Assembly (NCBI GenBank): GCA_015059285.1
Contig: SVAS01000001.1
Location: 68,217-132,216 of the forward strand
Source: Bacillota bacterium
Lineage (GTDB): Bacteria > Bacillota_I > Bacilli_A > RF39 > UBA660
Direction: 5' to 3'
Length of the DNA stretch: 64,000 nt
This document shows positions 6,732-62,565 of the stretch, in pieces. The notes under the pieces were generated by a model. It ran no database searches. It saw only the letters and a list, made by a program, of their open reading frames with translations, and was not told the DNA's origin. The translations under genes were made by a program, and so were the position numbers. Every line of letters starts with the position of its first letter. Within the stretch, counting starts at the first letter, position 1.

Positions 6732-6789
6732 TATAATAATAAATAATTATTTAAAAACGAAGAAAAAGAGTAGTAATAAGTAACTTTAT

Positions 6790-6948
6790 TTAAAGAGAGA
6801 AAGTGGTTGGTGAAAACTTTCATTAAAGTCTTATGAACTTGCTTTGGAGTTTGATCCGCTTGTAGCGTTAAAACATTTGAGTGCATAAGTATTATGAAAT
6901 AAGGTGGTACCACGGGTAAAACTCGTCCTTATACATAATACTTTTTTG
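6790..6948 (+). promoter_or_regulatory. T-box riboswitch leader (Leu specifier CUU) upstream of leuS
   Basis: Stem I start agagagaaagtggttggtgaaaac, T-box motif aaggtggtaccacgg at 6901-6915, downstream U-run; candidate specifier context gaaCUUg/gtCUUa. Confidence 0.8.
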
Positions 6949-10159: not shown

Positions 10160-10212
10160 ATTTATGTTGTACTTCTGTTCTAAATAATAAAAGTATGTAT
10201 AATAAAACTTGT
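10160..10212 (+). promoter_or_regulatory. conserved promoter of pilin-like paralog 1 (extended -10 TGTATAAT)
   Basis: tttatgttgtacttctgttc...gtatgTATAATaaaacttgttagaataggagtg is nearly identical to the region upstream of paralog 2. Confidence 0.6.
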
Positions 10213-10230
10213 TAGAATAGGAGTGAGTTT

Positions 10231-22813: not shown

Positions 22814-23029
22814 TATTATTACCTCCTCTCTATAAGAGATTTGGTAGACACCCAACAGTTAAATATTTCTAACAACATTATACCACTTGTCTATGTTCAA
22901 GTGAATTAAAATAGTTAATTATTTGTGAAAATATTAAAATACAAATTGGTATTTCAATATTTGTAAAATTGTGTTATAATATAAGCAGTTTAAAGGCAAA
23001 GACGAAGAAGTAGTAATAAAATTAATTAT

Positions 23030-23212
23030 TTAAAGAGAGTTAGTGGTTGGTGAAAACTAATAATAATATTTTATGAATTCATCTTCAGAGCTTTATATAC
23101 TAAATATATAACGGTAACGCGTTACAGTTTTAAGGCAAGTTGATAGACTTGTAAATTAAGGTGGTACCACGTAAACACGTCCTTATTGGATTGTGTTTTT
23201 TTTAATAATTAG
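23030..23212 (+). promoter_or_regulatory. T-box riboswitch leader (Phe specifier UUC) upstream of pheST
   Basis: agagagttagtggttggtgaaaac stem I start, gaaUUCa specifier context, T-box aaggtggtaccacg at 23158-23171, T-run; extended -10 TGTTATAAT at about 22968-22976. Confidence 0.8.
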
Positions 23213-26679: not shown

Positions 26680-26740
26680 TTTGCAATTTATGTTGTACTT
26701 CTATTCTAAAAAGTAAAAGGATGTATAATAAAACTTGTTA
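26680..26740 (+). promoter_or_regulatory. conserved promoter of pilin-like paralog 2
   Basis: atttatgttgtacttctattctaaaaagtaaaaggaTGTATAATaaaacttgttagaataggagtg is nearly identical to the region upstream of paralog 1. Confidence 0.6.
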
Positions 26741-26756
26741 GAATAGGAGTGGGAAA

Positions 26757-27989: not shown

Positions 27990-28229
27990 ATGAAATTAAT
28001 TAATAGTTTTAGAAACTATATTTTAGATGAAGAATTTAAAATTAATATTTATAAAGATAAAGTAAATATAGTTAATTATACTGATATAGTTAATTTCACC
28101 TCTAAAGAAGTGGTTGTTAAATATGAAGATGGGCATGTCTTTGTGTTTGGCAAAAATTTATCTATTTCAAGATTATTAATTGATGAAGTATTAATTTCTG
28201 GAGTAATTGAAAAAATAGAGCTAAGGTGA
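27990..28229 (+). CDS. yqfC: YabP/YqfC-family sporulation protein
   Basis: 79-aa protein with YabP-like pattern, immediately upstream of a yqfD homolog as in B. subtilis. Confidence 0.6.
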   Translation: MKLINSFRNYILDEEFKINIYKDKVNIVNYTDIVNFTSKEVVVKYEDGHVFVFGKNLSISRLLIDEVLISGVIEKIELR

Positions 28230-28233
28230 TAAT

Positions 28234-29412
28234 GTGAATAATATAGAATACAAATTAAAAAGTAAAATTAGGATAAAGGTAACAGGAAGAAAAGTAGAAT
28301 ATTTTTTAAAAAGATTAATGTCTTATAAAATAGAATTATTAGATATTAAAGTTATTAATAGTAAAGAAGTTATTCTTTTAATTTATAAAAGAGATTATGA
28401 AAGATTGGAACAGCTAAAAAGTATTTATGAATTAGAAATAGTTAATTATGAAGGAATATTAAAGTTAAAGCAAATTATTAATATAAATAAATTTATTATC
28501 TTATTTAGTCTTTTAGGACTAGCCATATTAATATTTTTAAGTAATATAATTTTTAAAGTAGAAGTAGTTCATAATGATAAGAGTATTAGAACACTACTAA
28601 TTAAAGAACTAGCTAATTATGAAATAGAACCTAAAAAATTAAAAAAAAGTTTTAAAGAAATAGAAAAAATAAAAAAGAAGATACTTGAAAAACATCGTGA
28701 AAAAATAGAATGGTTAGAAATAGAAAATATAGGAACAAAATATATTGTTAAAGTAGAGGAAAGAAAAATTATTGATATAAAAAAGGACTATATTAAACAA
28801 AATGTAGTTGCGAAAAAATCCGCAATTATTAAAAAAGTTTTTGCTAAAAATGGAGTAATTGTTAAAAATGTTGATGATTATGTTAAAGCAGGAGATGTTA
28901 TTATAAGTGGCGAAATTTTACTTAATGAAACCATTAAAGATACAATAAAAGCAGAAGGGGAAATATTTGGCGAAGTTTGGTACAATATAAAAGTAGAGTA
29001 TCCATATATTTATAGTGAGAAAAAAATGACTGGTAAGAAAAATAATGTATTTGCTATTAAGTTTTTAAATAAAACACTAGAATTATTTAATTTTAATAAA
29101 TATAAAGATAAAATTATAGATGAGGAAATTCTTTTAAATCATATATTTTTACCTATATCTTTTGTTAAACAAAAACCAAAAGAAATTGAAATAATAGAAT
29201 ATGTAGCAACTGAAGAAGAAGCAATCAATAAAGCTTTAGAAAAAGGACGTATGCAAATAAAAAGTCAATTAAATGACAACGAATACATAATAAGTGAAAA
29301 ACAATTGAAAGTTGATATAAAGGAGAGTAAAATAGTATTAGATATATTTTATGCAGTATATGAAAATATAACAGATTATATGGAAATAAAAGAACAAGTA
29401 TTAGAAGAATAG
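28234..29412 (+). CDS. yqfD: YqfD-family stage IV sporulation protein
   Basis: N-terminal region (IRIKVTGRKVEYFLKRL...YKIELLDIKV) and single TM helix typical of YqfD; conserved synteny. Confidence 0.65.
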   Translation: MNNIEYKLKSKIRIKVTGRKVEYFLKRLMSYKIELLDIKVINSKEVILLIYKRDYERLEQLKSIYELEIVNYEGILKLKQIININKFIILFSLLGLAILIFLSNIIFKVEVVHNDKSIRTLLIKELANYEIEPKKLKKSFKEIEKIKKKILEKHREKIEWLEIENIGTKYIVKVEERKIIDIKKDYIKQNVVAKKSAIIKKVFAKNGVIVKNVDDYVKAGDVIISGEILLNETIKDTIKAEGEIFGEVWYNIKVEYPYIYSEKKMTGKKNNVFAIKFLNKTLELFNFNKYKDKIIDEEILLNHIFLPISFVKQKPKEIEIIEYVATEEEAINKALEKGRMQIKSQLNDNEYIISEKQLKVDIKESKIVLDIFYAVYENITDYMEIKEQVLEE

Positions 29413-35800: not shown

Positions 35801-36259
35801 ATGGAGAAATTTAATCGAACACTTCGTGGCTATGATCCAGAAGAAGTAAATGCTTTTGTAGATCAAGTCATTGGCCAAGTTGAAAAGATGGTTAGTGAAG
35901 GTAAACTTAAAGATGCTAAAATAAAAGAACTAAAGTCTTTAGAAGTAGAAAATGTACGTTTAAAAGAAAAAATTGCACAATATGAACGTATGGAAGGAAC
36001 TTTAAATAAAGCTATATTAATGGCCCAAAAGACTTCTGATCAAATAAAGACTAATGCTCATAGAGAAAGTGAAATTATTTTAGAAGATGCTAAACGAAAT
36101 GCTAGTCGTATTGTTAATGAAGCTTTACTTAGAGCTGAAAAAACAGAGATGGAAGCAAATATGTTAAAACGTAATATTAATATATTTAAACGTCGTTTAA
36201 GAAGTATTATCGAACAACAACTTGAAATGGTTAATGATATTGAAAAAGTAGATTTTTAA
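35801..36259 (+). CDS. divIVA: DivIVA-domain protein
   Basis: FNRTLRGYDPEEVNAFVDQV N-terminal DivIVA motif, coiled coil. Confidence 0.8.
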   Translation: MEKFNRTLRGYDPEEVNAFVDQVIGQVEKMVSEGKLKDAKIKELKSLEVENVRLKEKIAQYERMEGTLNKAILMAQKTSDQIKTNAHRESEIILEDAKRNASRIVNEALLRAEKTEMEANMLKRNINIFKRRLRSIIEQQLEMVNDIEKVDF

Positions 36260-36294
36260 AACAGATGATAGAGACGATATACAAATTAGTCTTG

Positions 36295-36462
36295 CTAGAG
36301 AGTTAGTGGTTGGTGGAAACTAATGAAGAAGGTTGTATATAGATCACTCTAGATGTTTCTAATATAGAACGGTGACGCGTTATAGTTTTGAGTGTATAAT
36401 TTTTATAAAATAAGGTGGTACCGCGGGTAAAACTCGTCCTTAATTGGATGAGTTTTTTTGTT
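36295..36462 (+). promoter_or_regulatory. T-box riboswitch leader (Ile specifier AUC) upstream of ileS
   Basis: agagagttagtggttggtggaaac stem I start, tagAUCa specifier context, T-box aaggtggtaccgcgg, terminator actcgtcc/ggatgagt plus U7. Confidence 0.85.
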
Positions 36463-48193: not shown

Positions 48194-49336
48194 ATGAAAA
48201 TACTTAAAAAAGATAATCAAGAACTTGACGTAAAAAAAATTAATGAAGTTGTTGGAGTGTCTAAAAGGATTCTTAAAATAGCTTATATTTTGTTTATTGT
48301 TTTAGCTATCTATGTTTTTATTAAGGTAAGCAAAGAACTAAATATAATGAATTTTTTAATAACACTTTTGAAAATAGTTTCACCACTATTTATTGGTATT
48401 GTTATAGCATGGCTATTTAATCCGATTGTTACATATTTACAAAAAAAAGGTATGAGAAGAGGTTTAGGAGCAACACTTTCATATTTTGCATTAGTTGGTT
48501 TATTAACTATTGTAATTTGGTCTATAGTGCCAACCTTATCTGAACAAATAAATGATTTTGCTGGTATGATACCACAATTATTCGATACTATAAAGGAGTG
48601 GATTGATACTATTTTTGAAGGATTAAATAATATTGAAAGTTTTGATGCTCTTGCTATCAAATCCGATTTATTTAAAGCCATTGAAGAATTTGGGGTTAAT
48701 TTAACTAATTCACTTCCAACGATGGTAGTTAATATTATTAGTTCATTGTTTTCAGGACTTGGTACAATTTTAATTGGGTTAGTGATAGGATTTTATTTAT
48801 TAATTAGTGTTGATGGAACTGATAATCTAATTAATTTATTACCTAAGAAGATGCAAGAGACAACTCGTGATTTATTAACTGAAATAGATGGTTCTTTTAG
48901 AAGTTTTGTTCAAGGGGCGCTTTTAGATTCAACATTCGTATTTATTATTACATCTATTGGATTTTCTTTAATAGGATTAAAAGCACCACTATTCTTTGGA
49001 CTTTTCTGTGGAATTACTAATGTTATTCCATATGCAGGACCTTATATAGGTGGGGCACCTGCTGTTATAGTAGGTTTTTCACAAGGAATTCCAACAGGAA
49101 TATTAACTTTAGTGGTAATTGTTTTAATTCAATTTTTAGAAGGTAATTTCTTACAACCTTTAATAATGAGTAAAACAACTAAATTACATCCTGTTACAAT
49201 CATGTTAGGTCTTTTAGTCTTTGGTTATTTCTGGGGAATTATTGGTATGGTTATTTCAACTCCAATAATTGCTGCTTCTAAAGCAATTTTGATGTTTTTA
49301 GACGAAAAATATGATATACTATCATTTAGTGATTAA
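48194..49336 (+). CDS. AI-2E family transporter (UPF0118/PerM)
   Basis: 8 TM topology and conserved Gly-rich C-terminal half typical of AI-2E. Confidence 0.7.
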   Translation: MKILKKDNQELDVKKINEVVGVSKRILKIAYILFIVLAIYVFIKVSKELNIMNFLITLLKIVSPLFIGIVIAWLFNPIVTYLQKKGMRRGLGATLSYFALVGLLTIVIWSIVPTLSEQINDFAGMIPQLFDTIKEWIDTIFEGLNNIESFDALAIKSDLFKAIEEFGVNLTNSLPTMVVNIISSLFSGLGTILIGLVIGFYLLISVDGTDNLINLLPKKMQETTRDLLTEIDGSFRSFVQGALLDSTFVFIITSIGFSLIGLKAPLFFGLFCGITNVIPYAGPYIGGAPAVIVGFSQGIPTGILTLVVIVLIQFLEGNFLQPLIMSKTTKLHPVTIMLGLLVFGYFWGIIGMVISTPIIAASKAILMFLDEKYDILSFSD

Positions 49337-49371
49337 AGCGATGAAGAAAGAAAGTAGAATAATTTGTTTTT

Positions 49372-49530
49372 AAAGAGAGTTAGTGGTTGGTGGAAACTAA
49401 TAAATAAATTATTTGAAAGCTACTTTCTGAGTATAGTAAAAACTATCGGAAAAATCCGTTATCAAAATTAAGAACAAATTAGGATGGTACCACGGTTTTT
49501 TCGTTCCTAGAAAATAACCGTGGTTTTTTT
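49372..49530 (+). promoter_or_regulatory. T-box riboswitch leader (Ala specifier GCU) upstream of the dNMP-kinase-like/cmk/alaS operon
   Basis: agagagttagtggttggtggaaac, gaaaGCUa specifier context at 49429-49431, T-box ggatggtaccacgg, terminator ccacggtt...aaccgtgg plus U7. Confidence 0.85.
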
Positions 49531-50741: not shown

Positions 50742-52490
50742 ATGAATTTAAAAGATTTATATATTGATTTTTTTGTTAGTAAAGGGCATAAACAAATACC
50801 TTCTGCGCCTGTAATACCTGAAAATGACCCTTCAGTGCTATTTAATACAGCAGGTATGCAACCTTTAATTCCATATTTAATGGGTCAAGCTCATCCATAT
50901 GGAAAAAGATTAGTTGATTATCAAAAATGCATTAGAACTAATGATTTAGATAGTATTGGAGATACAACTCATCATACTTTTTTTGAAATGTTAGGTAATT
51001 GGAGTTTAGGCGATTATTTTAAAAAGGAAAGTATTTCTTGGAGTTTTGAATTTTTAACAAGTGTTTTAAAAATACCTGTTGAAAAACTAGCTGTAACAGT
51101 ATTTGCAGGTAATAATGATATCCCTGAGGATACTGAATCTATTGAAATTTGGAAAAGTTTAGGAATAAAAGAAGGAAGGATTGCTAAAACAGTAGAAGAT
51201 AATTTTTGGATTGCAGGTGAAACAGGACCTTGTGGACCAGATACTGAAATATTTTATTTCCGTAGTGAAGATGAAATTCCTGAAATATTTGATCCAGAAG
51301 ATAATCGTTGGGTAGAAATTTGGAATAATGTTTTTATGCAATATAATAAAAGTTTAGATGGAAGTATTTCTGAACTTCCAAATAAAAATGTTGATACAGG
51401 AATGGGTGTTGAAAGAGTTGTAGCAATATTAGAAGGTGTTAATGATAACTATACAACTTCTATTTGGAAAGATGTTATAAATAAAATTGAAGAATTATCA
51501 AATATTAAATATGAAGAAAATAAAGAAAGTATGCGTATTATAGCGGATCATTTAAGAACAGCTGTATTTATCTCTGCTGACCCAACTGGTATAAAACCTT
51601 CTAATACTGACCAAGGCTATATTTTAAGAAGATTAATTCGTAGAGCTATTAGACATGCTAAAAAATTAAATATAGATATGAATAGTGATTGGGAACAAGA
51701 GATAGCTTTAATTATTTTAGATAAATATTCAAAATATTACAGTGAATTAGAAGCTAATAAACAAGTAGTATTAGAAGTATTAAAAAATGAAAGAATTAAA
51801 TTTAATCGTACTTTAGAAAAAGGTTTAAGAGAATTTGAAAAAATAGCTAGTAATATTACAGATGGAAAACTAAATAAAGATTTAGCTTTTAAACTTTATG
51901 ATACTTATGGTTTTCCAATTGAACTTACAGTAGAACTAGCAAGTGAATTAAATTTATTAGTAGATGTAGATGGATTTAAAGAAAAATTTAAAGCACATCA
52001 AGAACTTTCAAGAGCAGGAGCTAGTGCTAAATTTAAAGGTGGTCTAGCTGGAGATGGAGAGGCTGAAACTAAATATCATACAGCAACACATTTACTTAAT
52101 GCTGCTTTAAAAGTTGTTGTAAATGAAGATGTTCATCAAAAAGGAAGTAATATTACATCTGAAAGGATGCGTTTTGACTTTTCTTGTGACCATAAATTAA
52201 CAGCTGAAGAAAAACAAAAAGTAGAAGAGTTAGTAAATAAGTGGATTAAAGAAGAAATTCCTATAACTAAGGAAGAAATGAATAAAGAAGAAGCTTTAAA
52301 ATCAGGTGCTGAGTGTATGTTCATAGAAAAATATCCAGATGTTGTAACAGTATATAGTATTGGTAATATTTCTAAAGAATTATGTGGTGGACCACATGTA
52401 GAAAATACTAAAGAATTAGGTGTTTTTGAAATTAAAAAAGAAGAAGCTAGTAGTGCTGGTGTAAGAAGAATAAAAGCTATTTTAAAATAA
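50742..52490 (+). CDS. alaS: minimal alanyl-tRNA synthetase (583 aa: catalytic, tRNA-recognition and editing core; no beta-barrel, no C-Ala)
   Basis: FNTAGM, FEMLGNWSLGDYFK, GVERV class II motifs; the editing HTATHLL ... CGGPHVENT ... AGVRRIKA follows directly after AKFKGG. Confidence 0.85.
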   Translation: MNLKDLYIDFFVSKGHKQIPSAPVIPENDPSVLFNTAGMQPLIPYLMGQAHPYGKRLVDYQKCIRTNDLDSIGDTTHHTFFEMLGNWSLGDYFKKESISWSFEFLTSVLKIPVEKLAVTVFAGNNDIPEDTESIEIWKSLGIKEGRIAKTVEDNFWIAGETGPCGPDTEIFYFRSEDEIPEIFDPEDNRWVEIWNNVFMQYNKSLDGSISELPNKNVDTGMGVERVVAILEGVNDNYTTSIWKDVINKIEELSNIKYEENKESMRIIADHLRTAVFISADPTGIKPSNTDQGYILRRLIRRAIRHAKKLNIDMNSDWEQEIALIILDKYSKYYSELEANKQVVLEVLKNERIKFNRTLEKGLREFEKIASNITDGKLNKDLAFKLYDTYGFPIELTVELASELNLLVDVDGFKEKFKAHQELSRAGASAKFKGGLAGDGEAETKYHTATHLLNAALKVVVNEDVHQKGSNITSERMRFDFSCDHKLTAEEKQKVEELVNKWIKEEIPITKEEMNKEEALKSGAECMFIEKYPDVVTVYSIGNISKELCGGPHVENTKELGVFEIKKEEASSAGVRRIKAILK

Positions 52491-52491
52491 C

Positions 52492-52513
52492 AGATTTTAT
52501 ATCTGTTTTTTTT
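52492..52513 (+). terminator. alaS terminator
   Basis: cagattttatatctg hairpin plus T8. Confidence 0.7.
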
Positions 52514-52519
52514 GTTTGT

Positions 52520-52640
52520 GATTTATGTTATAGAAACCACTTTAATTATAGTTTTATGTATAATAAAAATGTCAACGATAGCAAAATAAAACATAATGTT
52601 ATTGACAACAAAATATTTATGTTATAAAATTATTTTAGAA
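52520..52640 (+). promoter_or_regulatory. conserved dual promoter and long leader of pilin-like paralog 3
   Basis: extended -10 TGTATAAT at 52557-52564; TTGACA-16-TATAAA at 52602-52629; repeated tTATGTTATA motifs; about 85% identical to the region upstream of paralog 4. Confidence 0.6.
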
Positions 52641-52718
52641 CAATATGTTATACAAGGTAAATAAATGTATAAAAGGATAAAAGGTTGTTCAAAATAAGAA
52701 AGAAGGAGTGGAAAGAAA

Positions 52719-53711
52719 ATGAGACAAAACAAAAAAGGATTTACTTTAATTGAATTACTAGCAGTAATAGTGATACTAGCAATAATAGCACTAATAGCAG
52801 TACCAGTTATAATGAATATAATAAGTAGTGCAAGAGAAAGTGCATTTAAAGATACTGCTTATGGACTTGTGAAAGCTGGAGAGTTATACTACGCAAATCA
52901 ATTACTGACAACAGGTGGGATGATAGAAGATAAAGTTTTTACTTTTGATGATGGAAATGTTGAACCAACAGGTTTAGATATCAAAGGAAATTTGCCAACA
53001 ACTGGTTCAATGACAATTACCAAAGATGGAAGTGTGATTTTAAACGTTTCAGATGGTCAATTTCTTGCAACTAAAAACGAGCATCAAACTGATGTTGTTG
53101 TTATAAAAGGGAATGTTAGCAAACCTATTCCAAATTCAAATATAATCTCAGACAATAAGTGTGCAGTAGATGAAACTCAAATCTGTGCGGAAGGTACTTT
53201 AATAACTTACAAAGTAAATGATAGTCAAACTTATGACTTTTATGTAATAAAAGATACAGGTAGATTATTAACTTTGATTATGAATAGTAATTTAGGATTA
53301 AATGATGTTTCTTGGAATACTTCTGGTTTTGCTAGTGATGGTCCTACTGGGGTACTGAAAGCTTTAGAAGAACGCACGAATAATTGGACAAATGTAAATA
53401 TAATTTCTGAATATACTTATGTAGATACAAATGGAAATAACCAATATTCAGCCTTTACTAAAACTAATGTTAGATCTAGATTATTATCAAGTACAGAATA
53501 TGATATCAGTAAAACTTGGTTAACTTCAAATTTAGTAAATTATGATGCTTGTGGCTGGACTGAAAATGACGCTTGTGGTTATTGGACTGGAGAATCTATT
53601 TCTAATACTCCTGAAGGTTTTGGTTTATGCCTTACTTCTTATGGACCATATACATGTTCTGGAATGTATGGTATACGTCCAGTAATTGAAGTATCTAAAT
53701 TAGCAAATTAA
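52719..53711 (+). CDS. type IV pilin-like protein paralog 3 (330 aa)
   Basis: MRQNKKGFTLIELLAVIVILAIIALIAVP; C-terminal TLIMNSNLG, WTNVNI, CGYWTG, YGIRPVIEVSK. Confidence 0.85.
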   Translation: MRQNKKGFTLIELLAVIVILAIIALIAVPVIMNIISSARESAFKDTAYGLVKAGELYYANQLLTTGGMIEDKVFTFDDGNVEPTGLDIKGNLPTTGSMTITKDGSVILNVSDGQFLATKNEHQTDVVVIKGNVSKPIPNSNIISDNKCAVDETQICAEGTLITYKVNDSQTYDFYVIKDTGRLLTLIMNSNLGLNDVSWNTSGFASDGPTGVLKALEERTNNWTNVNIISEYTYVDTNGNNQYSAFTKTNVRSRLLSSTEYDISKTWLTSNLVNYDACGWTENDACGYWTGESISNTPEGFGLCLTSYGPYTCSGMYGIRPVIEVSKLAN

Positions 53712-53766
53712 GATGTTTATCAAATAGTGTTAGTGAACAATGATTTGATATGGATAACTGTATAAG

Positions 53767-53796
53767 AAAGGATGATAAAAATCATCCTTTTATAAT
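53767..53796 (+). terminator. terminator after paralog 3
   Basis: aaaggatgataaaaatcatccttttat; the same hairpin core follows the dacF-like gene upstream of paralog 4. Confidence 0.65.
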
Positions 53797-53804
53797 GCCT
53801 TTAA

Positions 53805-54030
53805 TCAAGAAAATTCGTGCGATAAAGTAATCATACTTTCTATAACAAAAGGTAATTCTTTTAAGTATTTTAACTTTACAAATTTTTTAACCCCCCATTT
53901 AATAATATTGTTATCAGAATCATTAACAGAACCACAATGTGGACAAAATTTGTGTTTATAGGTTAAAATTGTTTCAATTACCTTATAATTTTTAATAACT
54001 TTTTCTTCAATGTTATTTAAAATAAATAGA
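53805..54030 (-). pseudogene. probable ISL3-family transposase N-terminal remnant (zinc-finger region only)
   Basis: The minus-strand frame gives NIEEKVIKNYKVIETILTYKHKFCPHCGSVNDSDNNIIKWGVKKFVKLKYLKELPFVIE, which resembles the ISL3 transposase N-terminal zinc-finger region; it has no start codon and no catalytic part. Confidence 0.35.
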
Positions 54031-54498
54031 TTAAGATATTTAATATTTAGTAAATTTTATATATAATTATTATTAGATATGTTTCAGTGTTTGTTTTGTT
54101 GCTTACATTGTATCAGACTAAACATCTTTTTTAACAAAAAATAGTTGAGCGAGATTTTCTAACCAACACTATTTATAATACAACCCAAACAAAACTTCAA
54201 GGCTTGTTTTGTTATAATATGAAGAAAGTACTTCTATAGAAAACCTATTATTCACTTAGTAGTAAGTGAATTTAAAGTTACATAAACTAAAGGTTGATGC
54301 AGTGAGTTTAATTTAGGTGAGTTTATATTGAAAGATGAACCAAATAATGATAAGATTTTTTAAAATAGTAAAGGTCAATTAATTATAATAGATTTAAACT
54401 AGGTACATAATAATGTTTTTTTAATAAATACAAATACTAATTGAAAAAAGTTATTATTCGTGATAAAATGTAGGTGTATTCATAAAGTAGGTGAAATT

Positions 54499-62346: not shown

Positions 62347-62372
62347 AGGATGATTAAATTCATCCTTTTATT
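62345..62372 (+). terminator. terminator after the carboxypeptidase gene
   Basis: aaaggatgattaaattcatcctttt hairpin. Confidence 0.65.
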
Positions 62373-62377
62373 TATGT

Positions 62378-62500
62378 TATAGAAACCACTTCAAATAAAG
62401 TTTATGTATAATAAATATGTCAATGATAGTAAAGTAAAACAATATATTATTGACACCGAAATGTTTATGTTATAAAATTAATCTAGAACAATATGTTATA
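62378..62500 (+). promoter_or_regulatory. conserved dual promoter and long leader of pilin-like paralog 4
   Basis: about 85% identical to the region upstream of paralog 3, including TGTATAAT, TTGACA...TATAAA and repeated TTATGTTATA motifs. Confidence 0.6.
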
Positions 62501-62565
62501 CAAACTAAACAAATGCATAAAAGAATAAAAAGTTGTTCAAGATAAGAAAGAAGGAGTGGAATAGT

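Follow-up and report, generated by a model that had tools for sequence, protein, structure and literature searches.

A shared promoter and leader cassette upstream of dispersed prepilin-type genes in a low-G+C species of ruminant-gut Bacilli

The window analysed here, a stretch of 64,000 nucleotides (nt; 26% G+C) of contig SVAS01000001.1, carries four prepilin-type genes, which we named P1–P4, all on the + strand. The region of interest, 52520–52718, is the exact space from the terminator of an alaS-like gene to the start codon of P3. Together with P1–P4, 13 further paralogous or orthologous loci of the same species, taken from ruminant-gut metagenomes, gave 17 copies for examination, and all 17 carry an upstream cassette of one of two types, S or L. 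We conclude that the region is probably, though far from certainly, a family-specific transcription and translation-initiation cassette of a dispersed family of prepilin-type surface proteins, probably modular pilins, that evolves in concert. Each paralog would be a single-gene unit behind a terminated housekeeping gene and would bring its own promoter in S or L form. The cassette and the first ~50 codons, encoding the signal peptide and the alpha-1 helix, would be kept alike across at least 17 genes by purifying selection on discrete elements and by gene conversion across the whole 5' block, with the C-terminal domains free to diverge.

Architecture and family specificity of the cassette

The S-type cassette follows a terminator and consists of the 12-mer ATTTATGTTRTA (box A), 26 nt, TATAAT, a leader of ~20 nt and the Shine-Dalgarno sequence GGAGTG. 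The L-type cassette contains the same two boxes, followed by an invariant TTGACA-17-TAAAAT promoter and a predicted leader of ~82 nt (Table 1). P1, P2, P0029, P0032, P0066, L211a and L212b are S-type, while P3 and its ortholog P0001, P4, P0003, P0074 and its ortholog L212a, P0080, P0113, L211b, L212c and L213 are L-type. Much of this agrees with an original prediction made from the letters of the window. An element ATTTATGTT(A/G)TA, with TATAAT 25–26 nt further on inside (T/G)ATGTATAATAAA, indeed stands ahead of all four genes; P1 and P2 have a short leader in common (CTTGTTAGAATAGGAGTG, ~20 nt), and P3 and P4 share a region of ~200 bp that is 85% identical. The second promoter proposed for P3 and P4 is also present, although not with the 16-nt spacing given for it: it reads TTGACA-17-TAAAAT (11/12 matches) or, alternatively, TTGACA-15-TATAAA. 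Likewise, a long leader is predicted, at ~82 nt. The description of TGTATAAT as an extended -10 has to be given up in its canonical sense, since TG abuts the hexamer and the spacer base of TGnTATAAT is absent. The same is seen in ATGTATAAT, where TG lies directly against TATAAT; in the proximal promoter, TGtTATAAA fits solely in the alternative register with a 15-nt spacer.

With its -35 and -10 elements within 16–18 nt of each other, the proximal L-type promoter belongs to the sigma-70/sigma-A class. It is one of just six such sites on the + strand of the window, and both of its hexamers are invariant in 10/10 L-type copies. No recognisable -35 element was found 16–18 nt upstream of the S-type or distal TATAAT, where the hexamers CTGTTC, CTATTC and CCACTT match TTGACA at no more than 2/6 positions. 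Counted from the transcription start that the distal -10 predicts, box A1 of P3 occupies about -50 to -39. We propose that the S-type cassette would work with ATTTATGTTRTA centred near -45, a perfect TATAAT lacking a -35, a ~20-nt leader and the strong Shine-Dalgarno sequence GGAGTG. In the L-type, the box and TATAAT module would serve as a distal promoter upstream of a near-consensus housekeeping-sigma promoter (TTGACA-17-TAAAAT), and the first 17 nt and the TTGTTCAAGATAAG block of its predicted ~82-nt leader are nearly invariant.

The proximal half of the L-type cassette (box A2, ..TCTAGAA.., ATGTATAAAAG, ..TTGTT.., GGAGTG) has the same order as the whole S-type cassette, and its distal half repeats box A, the 26-nt spacer and TATAAT. 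Since the S-type is collinear with the L-type proximal half, the simplest history is a partial tandem duplication of an S-like cassette combined with the gain of TTGACA, and the L-type probably arose in this way. Simple deletion of an L-type into an S-type cassette was rejected on the grounds of this collinearity and because the 26-nt spacers are not homologous. An invertible, fimS-like promoter was also rejected: the inverted-repeat arms are at most 18 nt long and 73–91% complementary, and none brackets the promoter in a conserved manner; no recombinase was noted in the neighbouring open reading frames (ORFs) that were read or scanned.

Table 1. Positions of the prepilin-type genes and of their upstream elements in the 64,000-nt window
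Feature	Position	Strand	Remarks
P1, prepilin-type gene, 358 aa	10231–11307	+	identical to database protein P0073
P2, prepilin-type gene, 368 aa	26757–27863	+	identical to database protein P0053
P3, prepilin-type gene, 330 aa	52719–53711	+	Pfam PF07963 and TIGR02532 match; AlphaFold2 model
P4, prepilin-type gene, 351 aa	62566–63621	+	prepilin-type profile match
S-type cassette of P1	10160–10230	+	box A 10160–10171, 26-nt spacer, TATAAT 10198–10203, ~20-nt leader, GGAGTG 10220–10225
S-type cassette of P2	26686–26756	+	box A 26686–26697, 26-nt spacer, TATAAT 26724–26729, GGAGTG 26746–26751
Intrinsic terminator of alaS-like gene	52489–52513	+	hairpin 52489–52507, then T-run; fold -6.0 kcal/mol, z -3.5
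P3 box A1, ATTTATGTTATA	52521–52532	+	5' edge of paralog homology; identity 0.92 versus 0.38 in the flank just upstream
P3 distal -10 region, TATGTATAATAAA	52555–52567	+	TATAAT 52559–52564; identity 0.90–0.96; degenerate in P0003
P3 proximal sigma-A-type promoter	52602–52630	+	TTGACA 52602–52607, 17 nt, TAAAAT 52625–52630; 11/12, best match in the region
P3 box A2, ATTTATGTTATA	52615–52626	+	overlaps proximal -10
P3 predicted ~82-nt leader	52637–52718	+	start predicted; box A3 ATATGTTATAC 52643–52653, ATGTATAAAA 52665–52674, GGAGTG 52705–52710
L-type cassette of P4	62370–62565	+	box A1 62370–62381, TATAAT 62407–62412, TTGACA 62450–62455
L-type cassette of P4, downstream part		+	TAAAAT 62473–62478, box A3 62491–62500, GGAGTG 62553–62558

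The exact 12-mer ATTTATGTTRTA is present in 26 copies in 179 kb of same-species DNA, where about one would be expected by chance on our estimate from base composition. Each of the 26 precedes a prepilin gene on the same strand by less than 260 nt; elsewhere in the 179 kb there is none, and no non-pilin gene with the box was seen there. The worry attached to the original prediction, that the motif might simply be frequent genome-wide, therefore does not apply to the exact box, which is family-specific in this DNA. The decamer with one mismatch allowed is not enriched in the window (34 found, 37.7 expected). A relaxed bipartite scan of the window (box A with up to two mismatches, TATAAT 24–28 nt further on) returned the four paralogs and one chance-level site inside dnaE. 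A metagenome scan with ATTTATGTTRTA-N24-27-ATRTATAAT was discarded as too degenerate: it gave at least 120 chance matches in unrelated AT-rich DNA, and none of those listed adjoins a prepilin gene. In distant relatives (L001–L080), the pilin genes have ordinary promoters of other sequence, and footprinting beyond the species is therefore not possible. Pilin paralogs within one genome of other species (L001, L008, L040, L053, L055, L070 and L078) also share upstream DNA, with a sequence unlike this cassette. It thus seems to be a general trait of these Bacilli that pilin paralogs have promoters in common.

P1, P2, P3 and P4 each stand alone, behind leuS, pheT, the alaS-like gene and a D-Ala-D-Ala carboxypeptidase gene, respectively. 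The intrinsic terminator of the alaS-like gene insulates P3 from read-through, and terminators consisting of a hairpin and a T-run are likewise found ahead of P1, P2 and P4 (-9.7 to -11.4 kcal/mol). Because a predicted promoter and leader of its own sits behind the intrinsic terminator of the upstream gene in each case, read-through is unlikely to be the sole driver of P1–P4. Homology within the family has a sharp 5' start at box A and a 3' end at the stop codon, beyond which the 3' flanks are unrelated. A mobile cassette was rejected because the homology stops there.

All four proteins exceed the cut-offs of PF07963 and TIGR02532 (Pfam and NCBIfam), which recognise the N-terminal methylation motif only. 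The motif KKG/FTLIELL is present (the slash marks the end of the leader peptide), with the glycine at -1, phenylalanine at +1, glutamate at +5 and hydrophobic alpha-1 helix of type IV pilins and prepilins. The ~45 residues that follow the leader peptide (KKG/FTLIELLAVIVILAIIALIAVPVIMNIISSAR...) are nearly identical across P1–P4, and the remainder is 45–67% identical. In P3, the class III signal peptide MRQNKKG/FTLIE precedes the alpha-1 helix and two beta-rich modules. The AlphaFold2 model of P3, with a predicted local distance difference test score of 90.7, contains a 53-residue alpha-1 helix (residues 10–62) and the same two modules; neither the model nor the fold of its modules has a significant match in the PDB. 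Proteins identical to P1 and P2 are encoded, together with many more paralogs, on a contig (up to 576 kb) of a 'Firmicutes bacterium' metagenome-assembled genome. A literature search on the pilin family returned nothing specific to it. Directly 3' of paralog P0003 lies a gene of 554 residues with a prepilin-like N-terminus (MKKKGFTLAELVG...; L082, 3088–4752), for which no Pfam hit was recorded and whose upstream region is unlike the S and L cassettes.

Conservation and exchange of the 5' block

Conservation upstream of the L-type genes is concentrated in discrete segments. Expressed as mean pairwise identity in the L-type alignment, it is 0.92 for box A1, 0.90 for the distal -10, 0.93 for GTTATTGACA, 0.97 for box A2 with the -10, 0.99 for +1 to +17 (AGAACAATATGTTATAC) and 0.95 for the TTGTTCAAGATAAG block, compared to 0.72–0.80 for the spacers. 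Four predefined hexamers (the -35, both -10s and the Shine-Dalgarno sequence) reach 0.98, against 0.76 for the remainder (block-permutation P ~0.002). In addition, upstream identity (0.69–0.95) is generally higher than the third-codon-position identity of the adjacent N-terminal coding block (0.53–0.91). We read this pattern as suggesting purifying selection on promoter and ribosome-binding elements.

The same block also bears the marks of exchange. Over 7 kb, the window matches the locus of another strain (L081) at 98–100% identity, except across 52516–52815, where the figure drops to 84–92%. This dip spans the promoter, the leader and the first ~100 nt of P3, and changes the N-terminus from MKKKGF to MRQNKKGF; localised as it is, it has the signature of, and thus indicates, a gene-conversion tract from another paralog. 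At ~17/29 columns that differ between the P3 locus and L081, both alleles are also found in other paralogs. L211a and P1 have an identical 74-nt cassette and are 90% identical over the N-terminal 150 nt, while the C-terminal parts of their proteins are 53% identical. More generally, neither N-terminal nor C-terminal coding similarity goes together with the type of cassette that a gene has (S or L), and the locus upstream of PRC-glycosyltransferase-ApbE has an S cassette in one strain and an L cassette in the other. From this evidence, we infer that the 5' block is exchanged between paralogs by recombination.

At that PRC-glycosyltransferase-ApbE locus (L085, 2001–3020, and L212, 15776–16819), the syntenic DNA downstream is 94% identical, the pilin alleles are only 77% identical and the upstream neighbours differ, which hints that pilin paralogs undergo recombination or rearrangement. 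In the window, identity between strains falls a second time, less deeply, to 91–93% at 52016–52315 in the 3' part of the alaS-like gene.

Conversion of this strength raises the question of whether shared ancestry could be the whole explanation, with the paralogs alike upstream only through recent duplication and continuing conversion of the 5' block, and the repeated words having no function beyond that of an ordinary promoter. The identical cassettes of P1 and L211a in otherwise diverged genes would fit such an origin, as would the paralogs of other species that likewise share upstream DNA of a different sequence. However, the conservation is patterned, with hexamers and boxes far above the spacers, and upstream DNA is generally better conserved than adjacent synonymous positions in the same conversion-prone block. 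We thus regard pure ancestry as quite improbable and prefer a cassette whose elements are also under selection.

Decamer repeats and the L-type leader

The original prediction took the repeated decamers to be typical of response-regulator or DNA-binding-protein arrays. Copies do recur within 52520–52718, TATGTTATA three times (at 52524, 52618 and 52644) and ATGTATAA twice (at 52556 and 52665). Two of the variants described as direct repeats, TTATACA (52648–52654) and TGTATAA (52666–52672), are reverse complements of each other. The array interpretation itself is not borne out, as the spacing is irregular (31, 63, 26 and 20 nt) and the copies coincide with the -10s of the tandem promoters and with the leader. 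Box A2 shares bases with the -10 of the consensus promoter, ATGTATAAT is the distal -10, and box A3 and the proximal ATGTATAA, which are mutually complementary, lie in the predicted leader. Response-regulator or LytTR-type arrays consist of at least two imperfect direct repeats of 9–10 bp, spaced by ~21–22 bp or multiples of the helical turn, upstream of the core promoter. With its uneven intervals and its overlap with -10s and the transcribed leader, the cassette does not fit this pattern. The TTATGTTATA and ATGTATAA words may instead be -10-like cores of promoter modules, probably left behind by partial tandem duplication, and two of the copies would be able to pair in the leader RNA.

A dedicated protein could still recognise these words, either as an activator at box A or as a repressor flanking or overlapping the proximal promoter, and switch the whole family together. 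Such a protein would make sense of several features. Box A is invariant and is held at 25–26 nt from TATAAT across a non-conserved spacer; it lies near -45, where activators or the C-terminal domain of the RNA polymerase alpha subunit make contact, and the S-type cassette has no -35. The +1 to +17 block is conserved at 0.99, two AACA-N3-TGTT dyads (52589–52599 and 52640–52650) flank the proximal promoter, and a gene for a LytTR response regulator is situated directly 3' of paralog P0074 in two strains. Against this, the copies are irregularly spaced, do not match the 21–22 bp periodicity of LytTR sites and fall on -10 elements and transcribed DNA. L211b and L213 have not kept the upstream dyad, and the distant relatives have different upstream sequences. 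The box precedes no non-pilin gene in the 179 kb, hence no wider regulon is apparent. Additionally, there is no candidate regulator in the window, and no binding protein can be named. An array for a family-wide regulator is therefore doubtful. The LytTR-type gene itself (Response_reg and LytTR domains; L088, 3128–3835, and L212, 6689–7396), immediately 3' of the L-type P0074, is a candidate regulator by position, although the repeat spacing of the cassette does not fit LytTR sites.

Folding of the L-type leader with RNAalifold and RNAfold yields a predicted hairpin of two stems, beginning within 1–2 nt of the predicted start site (at +2). Its outer stem would pair GAACAAU with GUUGUUC (52638–52644 with 52684–52690), and its inner stem UUAUACA with UGUAUAA (52648–52654 with 52666–52672). 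The leader of P3 folds at -8.3 kcal/mol (z -3.6), that of P4 has a z of -0.4 and that of P0003 a z of +0.9. No Rfam family was found for the leader: at gathering thresholds, the only matches in the window are four T-boxes located elsewhere, and a permissive scan of 52480–52760 gave chance-level hits only. In the absence of an Rfam match, a riboswitch or other known RNA was rejected. With a covariance model built on the leader, the only matches were L-type pilin leaders from this species, and the distant relatives L001–L080 gave none. Most L-type leaders contain an upstream ORF of 11 codons, MLYK(V/L/I)NK(C/S)IK(E/G)-stop (52645–52680), with some synonymous changes. It was rejected as a conserved coding feature, since no Shine-Dalgarno sequence accompanies it and two copies no longer have it, P0080 through a frameshift and L211b through a change of ATG to ACG.

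The conservation of the leader might instead reflect a function of the RNA, in which the ~82 nt would form a hairpin protecting the 5' end of the mRNA or an element that controls translation in response to a protein or ligand. The position of the hairpin at the predicted start and the z of P3 are what such an element would lead one to expect; moreover, 95.8% of cells are paired, compared to 31–45% with slid partners, wobble pairs favour the sense strand, and conservation within the leader is highest in the two arms of the outer stem. A double change from C-G to U-A in the stem is unique to P3. There is also precedent: mRNAs of Bacilli gain stability from 5' leaders, stem-loops and strong Shine-Dalgarno sequences, and in E. 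coli the papA pilin mRNA lives longer because of a stem-loop at its 5' end (PMC3997798 and references therein). Yet the structure has little stability (-3 to -8 kcal/mol), and in P4 and P0003 it does not surpass shuffled sequences. Four copies (P4, P0003, P0113 and L211b) have a broken inner stem, and the covariation is not significant (138/500 shuffles). The lack of an Rfam match and the restriction of the covariance model to this species point the same way, and the S-type paralogs manage without a long leader. We therefore consider it unlikely that an RNA function explains the conservation of the leader. The leader might still have a stabilising structure at its 5' end, of the sort described for aprE, ermC and papA (PMC3997798).

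Several points weigh against the expression cassette that we favour. Both its start sites and its activity as a promoter are predicted. Conversion between genes can increase identity even where no selection acts, which makes the footprint suggestive rather than proof. The 0.99 identity of +1 to +17 is not explained by core-promoter function alone, and the S-type or distal module, which has neither a -35 nor a canonical TGn, may depend on an activator or on an UP-like contact made at box A. Finally, the leader hairpin is weak and, besides its insignificant covariation, contains one compensatory pair only. Even so, a known kind of mechanism suffices: the cassette is a real but fairly ordinary expression module and not a demonstrated regulator-binding array. 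Co-regulation of the family through the shared box A and TATAAT module is plausible. High or coordinated expression of the family and stabilisation of its mRNAs by the leader would be possible consequences.

A bolder extension is that the 5' block (promoter, leader and alpha-1 coding sequence) is a portable expression module, moved by conversion among at least 17 dispersed modular-pilin genes. It would exist in two states, S (weak or activator-dependent) and L (with an added consensus promoter and a long leader), and recombination would reassign which adhesin-like paralogs are strongly expressed in each strain. We offer this as a speculation that is rather improbable as it stands. If true, it would mean conversion-based variation of the displayed pilin repertoire, rather than variation by inversion or slippage.

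Genomic setting and comparison with known systems

Some neighbouring features deserve mention. The alaS-like gene (50742–52490) encodes an alanyl-tRNA synthetase-like protein of ~582–587 residues with PF01411 and tRNA_SAD, without the usual C-terminal third of the bacterial enzyme. On the other side of P3, a gap of ~750 bp (53712–54459) contains no ORF of 50 or more residues and no Rfam hit; it is 98–100% identical between two strains and might contain a small RNA that escaped annotation, or else a decayed gene. The four T-box leaders above the Rfam gathering threshold are located at 6751–6933, 22990–23187, 36256–36444 and 49332–49511, those at 22990 and 36256 being upstream of the pheS/pheT genes and a 1033-residue ORF. 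Sporulation-type genes are represented by YqfC/YqfD-like ORFs in 27990–29412 and by CotE, SpoIVA and SpoVA in the same-species loci L090, L211 and L213; judging from these, this small lineage of 26% G+C gut Bacilli is probably spore-forming.

No new kind of regulatory mechanism is revealed by the cassette. What it provides is a set of concrete promoter elements (box A, two -10s, a consensus -35 and leader blocks) for an uncultured, 26% G+C lineage of ruminant-gut Bacilli in whose genome pilin-like genes stand alone at many places. Sorting metatranscriptome reads between S-type and L-type paralogs could help to distinguish coordinated from differential expression. Concerted evolution confined to the 5' block also bears on how surface families diversify their C-terminal modules while retaining signals for export and expression.

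Features of the family recall several known systems. The pilA1 gene of Clostridioides difficile has a leader with a cyclic di-GMP riboswitch. The L-type genes resemble it in having a long leader upstream of a Firmicute pilin gene, but the leader here matches no Rfam riboswitch at gathering or permissive thresholds, and is too short and too weakly structured. In the vlp, vsp and vsa families of Mycoplasma, the 5' non-coding and signal-peptide region is conserved, the remainder is variable and members recombine. All three properties are found here. In contrast to those families, no homopolymer tract was seen in the aligned promoters, flanking inverted repeats were not found, and none of the annotated ORFs was noted as an invertase or recombinase. 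The genes lie scattered between essential ones, in a single orientation, and every copy looks expression-competent. Neisseria has, besides pilE, silent pilS copies with neither promoter nor N-terminus, and it is the variable part of the pilin that conversion alters. The present family is similar in its conserved N-terminus, variable C-terminus and conversion between copies. It differs in that each of the 17 copies is full length and has a predicted promoter and a Shine-Dalgarno sequence as well as an intact N-terminus, and in that the detected conversion tract covers the conserved 5' block.

At the protein level, the closest parallel is with PilB and PilC of Streptococcus sanguinis (PMC8179133, PMC9934059), which likewise combine a class III signal peptide and alpha-1 module with an extra C-terminal module in a monoderm host. 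PilB and PilC, however, are encoded in a pil operon with its machinery (PMC8179133, PMC9934059), while here we find many stand-alone paralogs with predicted private promoters and no machinery genes in the 64 kb. With the mRNA stabilisers of Firmicutes (aprE, ermC and the cryIIIA STAB-SD) and with papA of E. coli (PMC3997798), the L-type cassette shares a predicted hairpin at the 5' end, a purine-rich tract, a strong Shine-Dalgarno sequence and, in the case of papA, a pilin-type gene. It differs from the stabilisers (PMC3997798) in that the 5' end is predicted, the stability in some paralogs is no better than that of shuffles and the covariation is not significant. Genes for abundant surface proteins are known to have promoters in tandem and long leaders, slpA of Lactobacillus brevis and L. 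acidophilus being examples (PMC3666127). Although the cassette, unlike that of slpA, is common to many dispersed paralogs, with a weak predicted hairpin and predicted promoters, the L-type genes resemble slpA (PMC3666127) in their overall design: a monocistronic surface-protein gene with two tandem promoters, a long untranslated leader whose 5' end may pair and a strong Shine-Dalgarno sequence.

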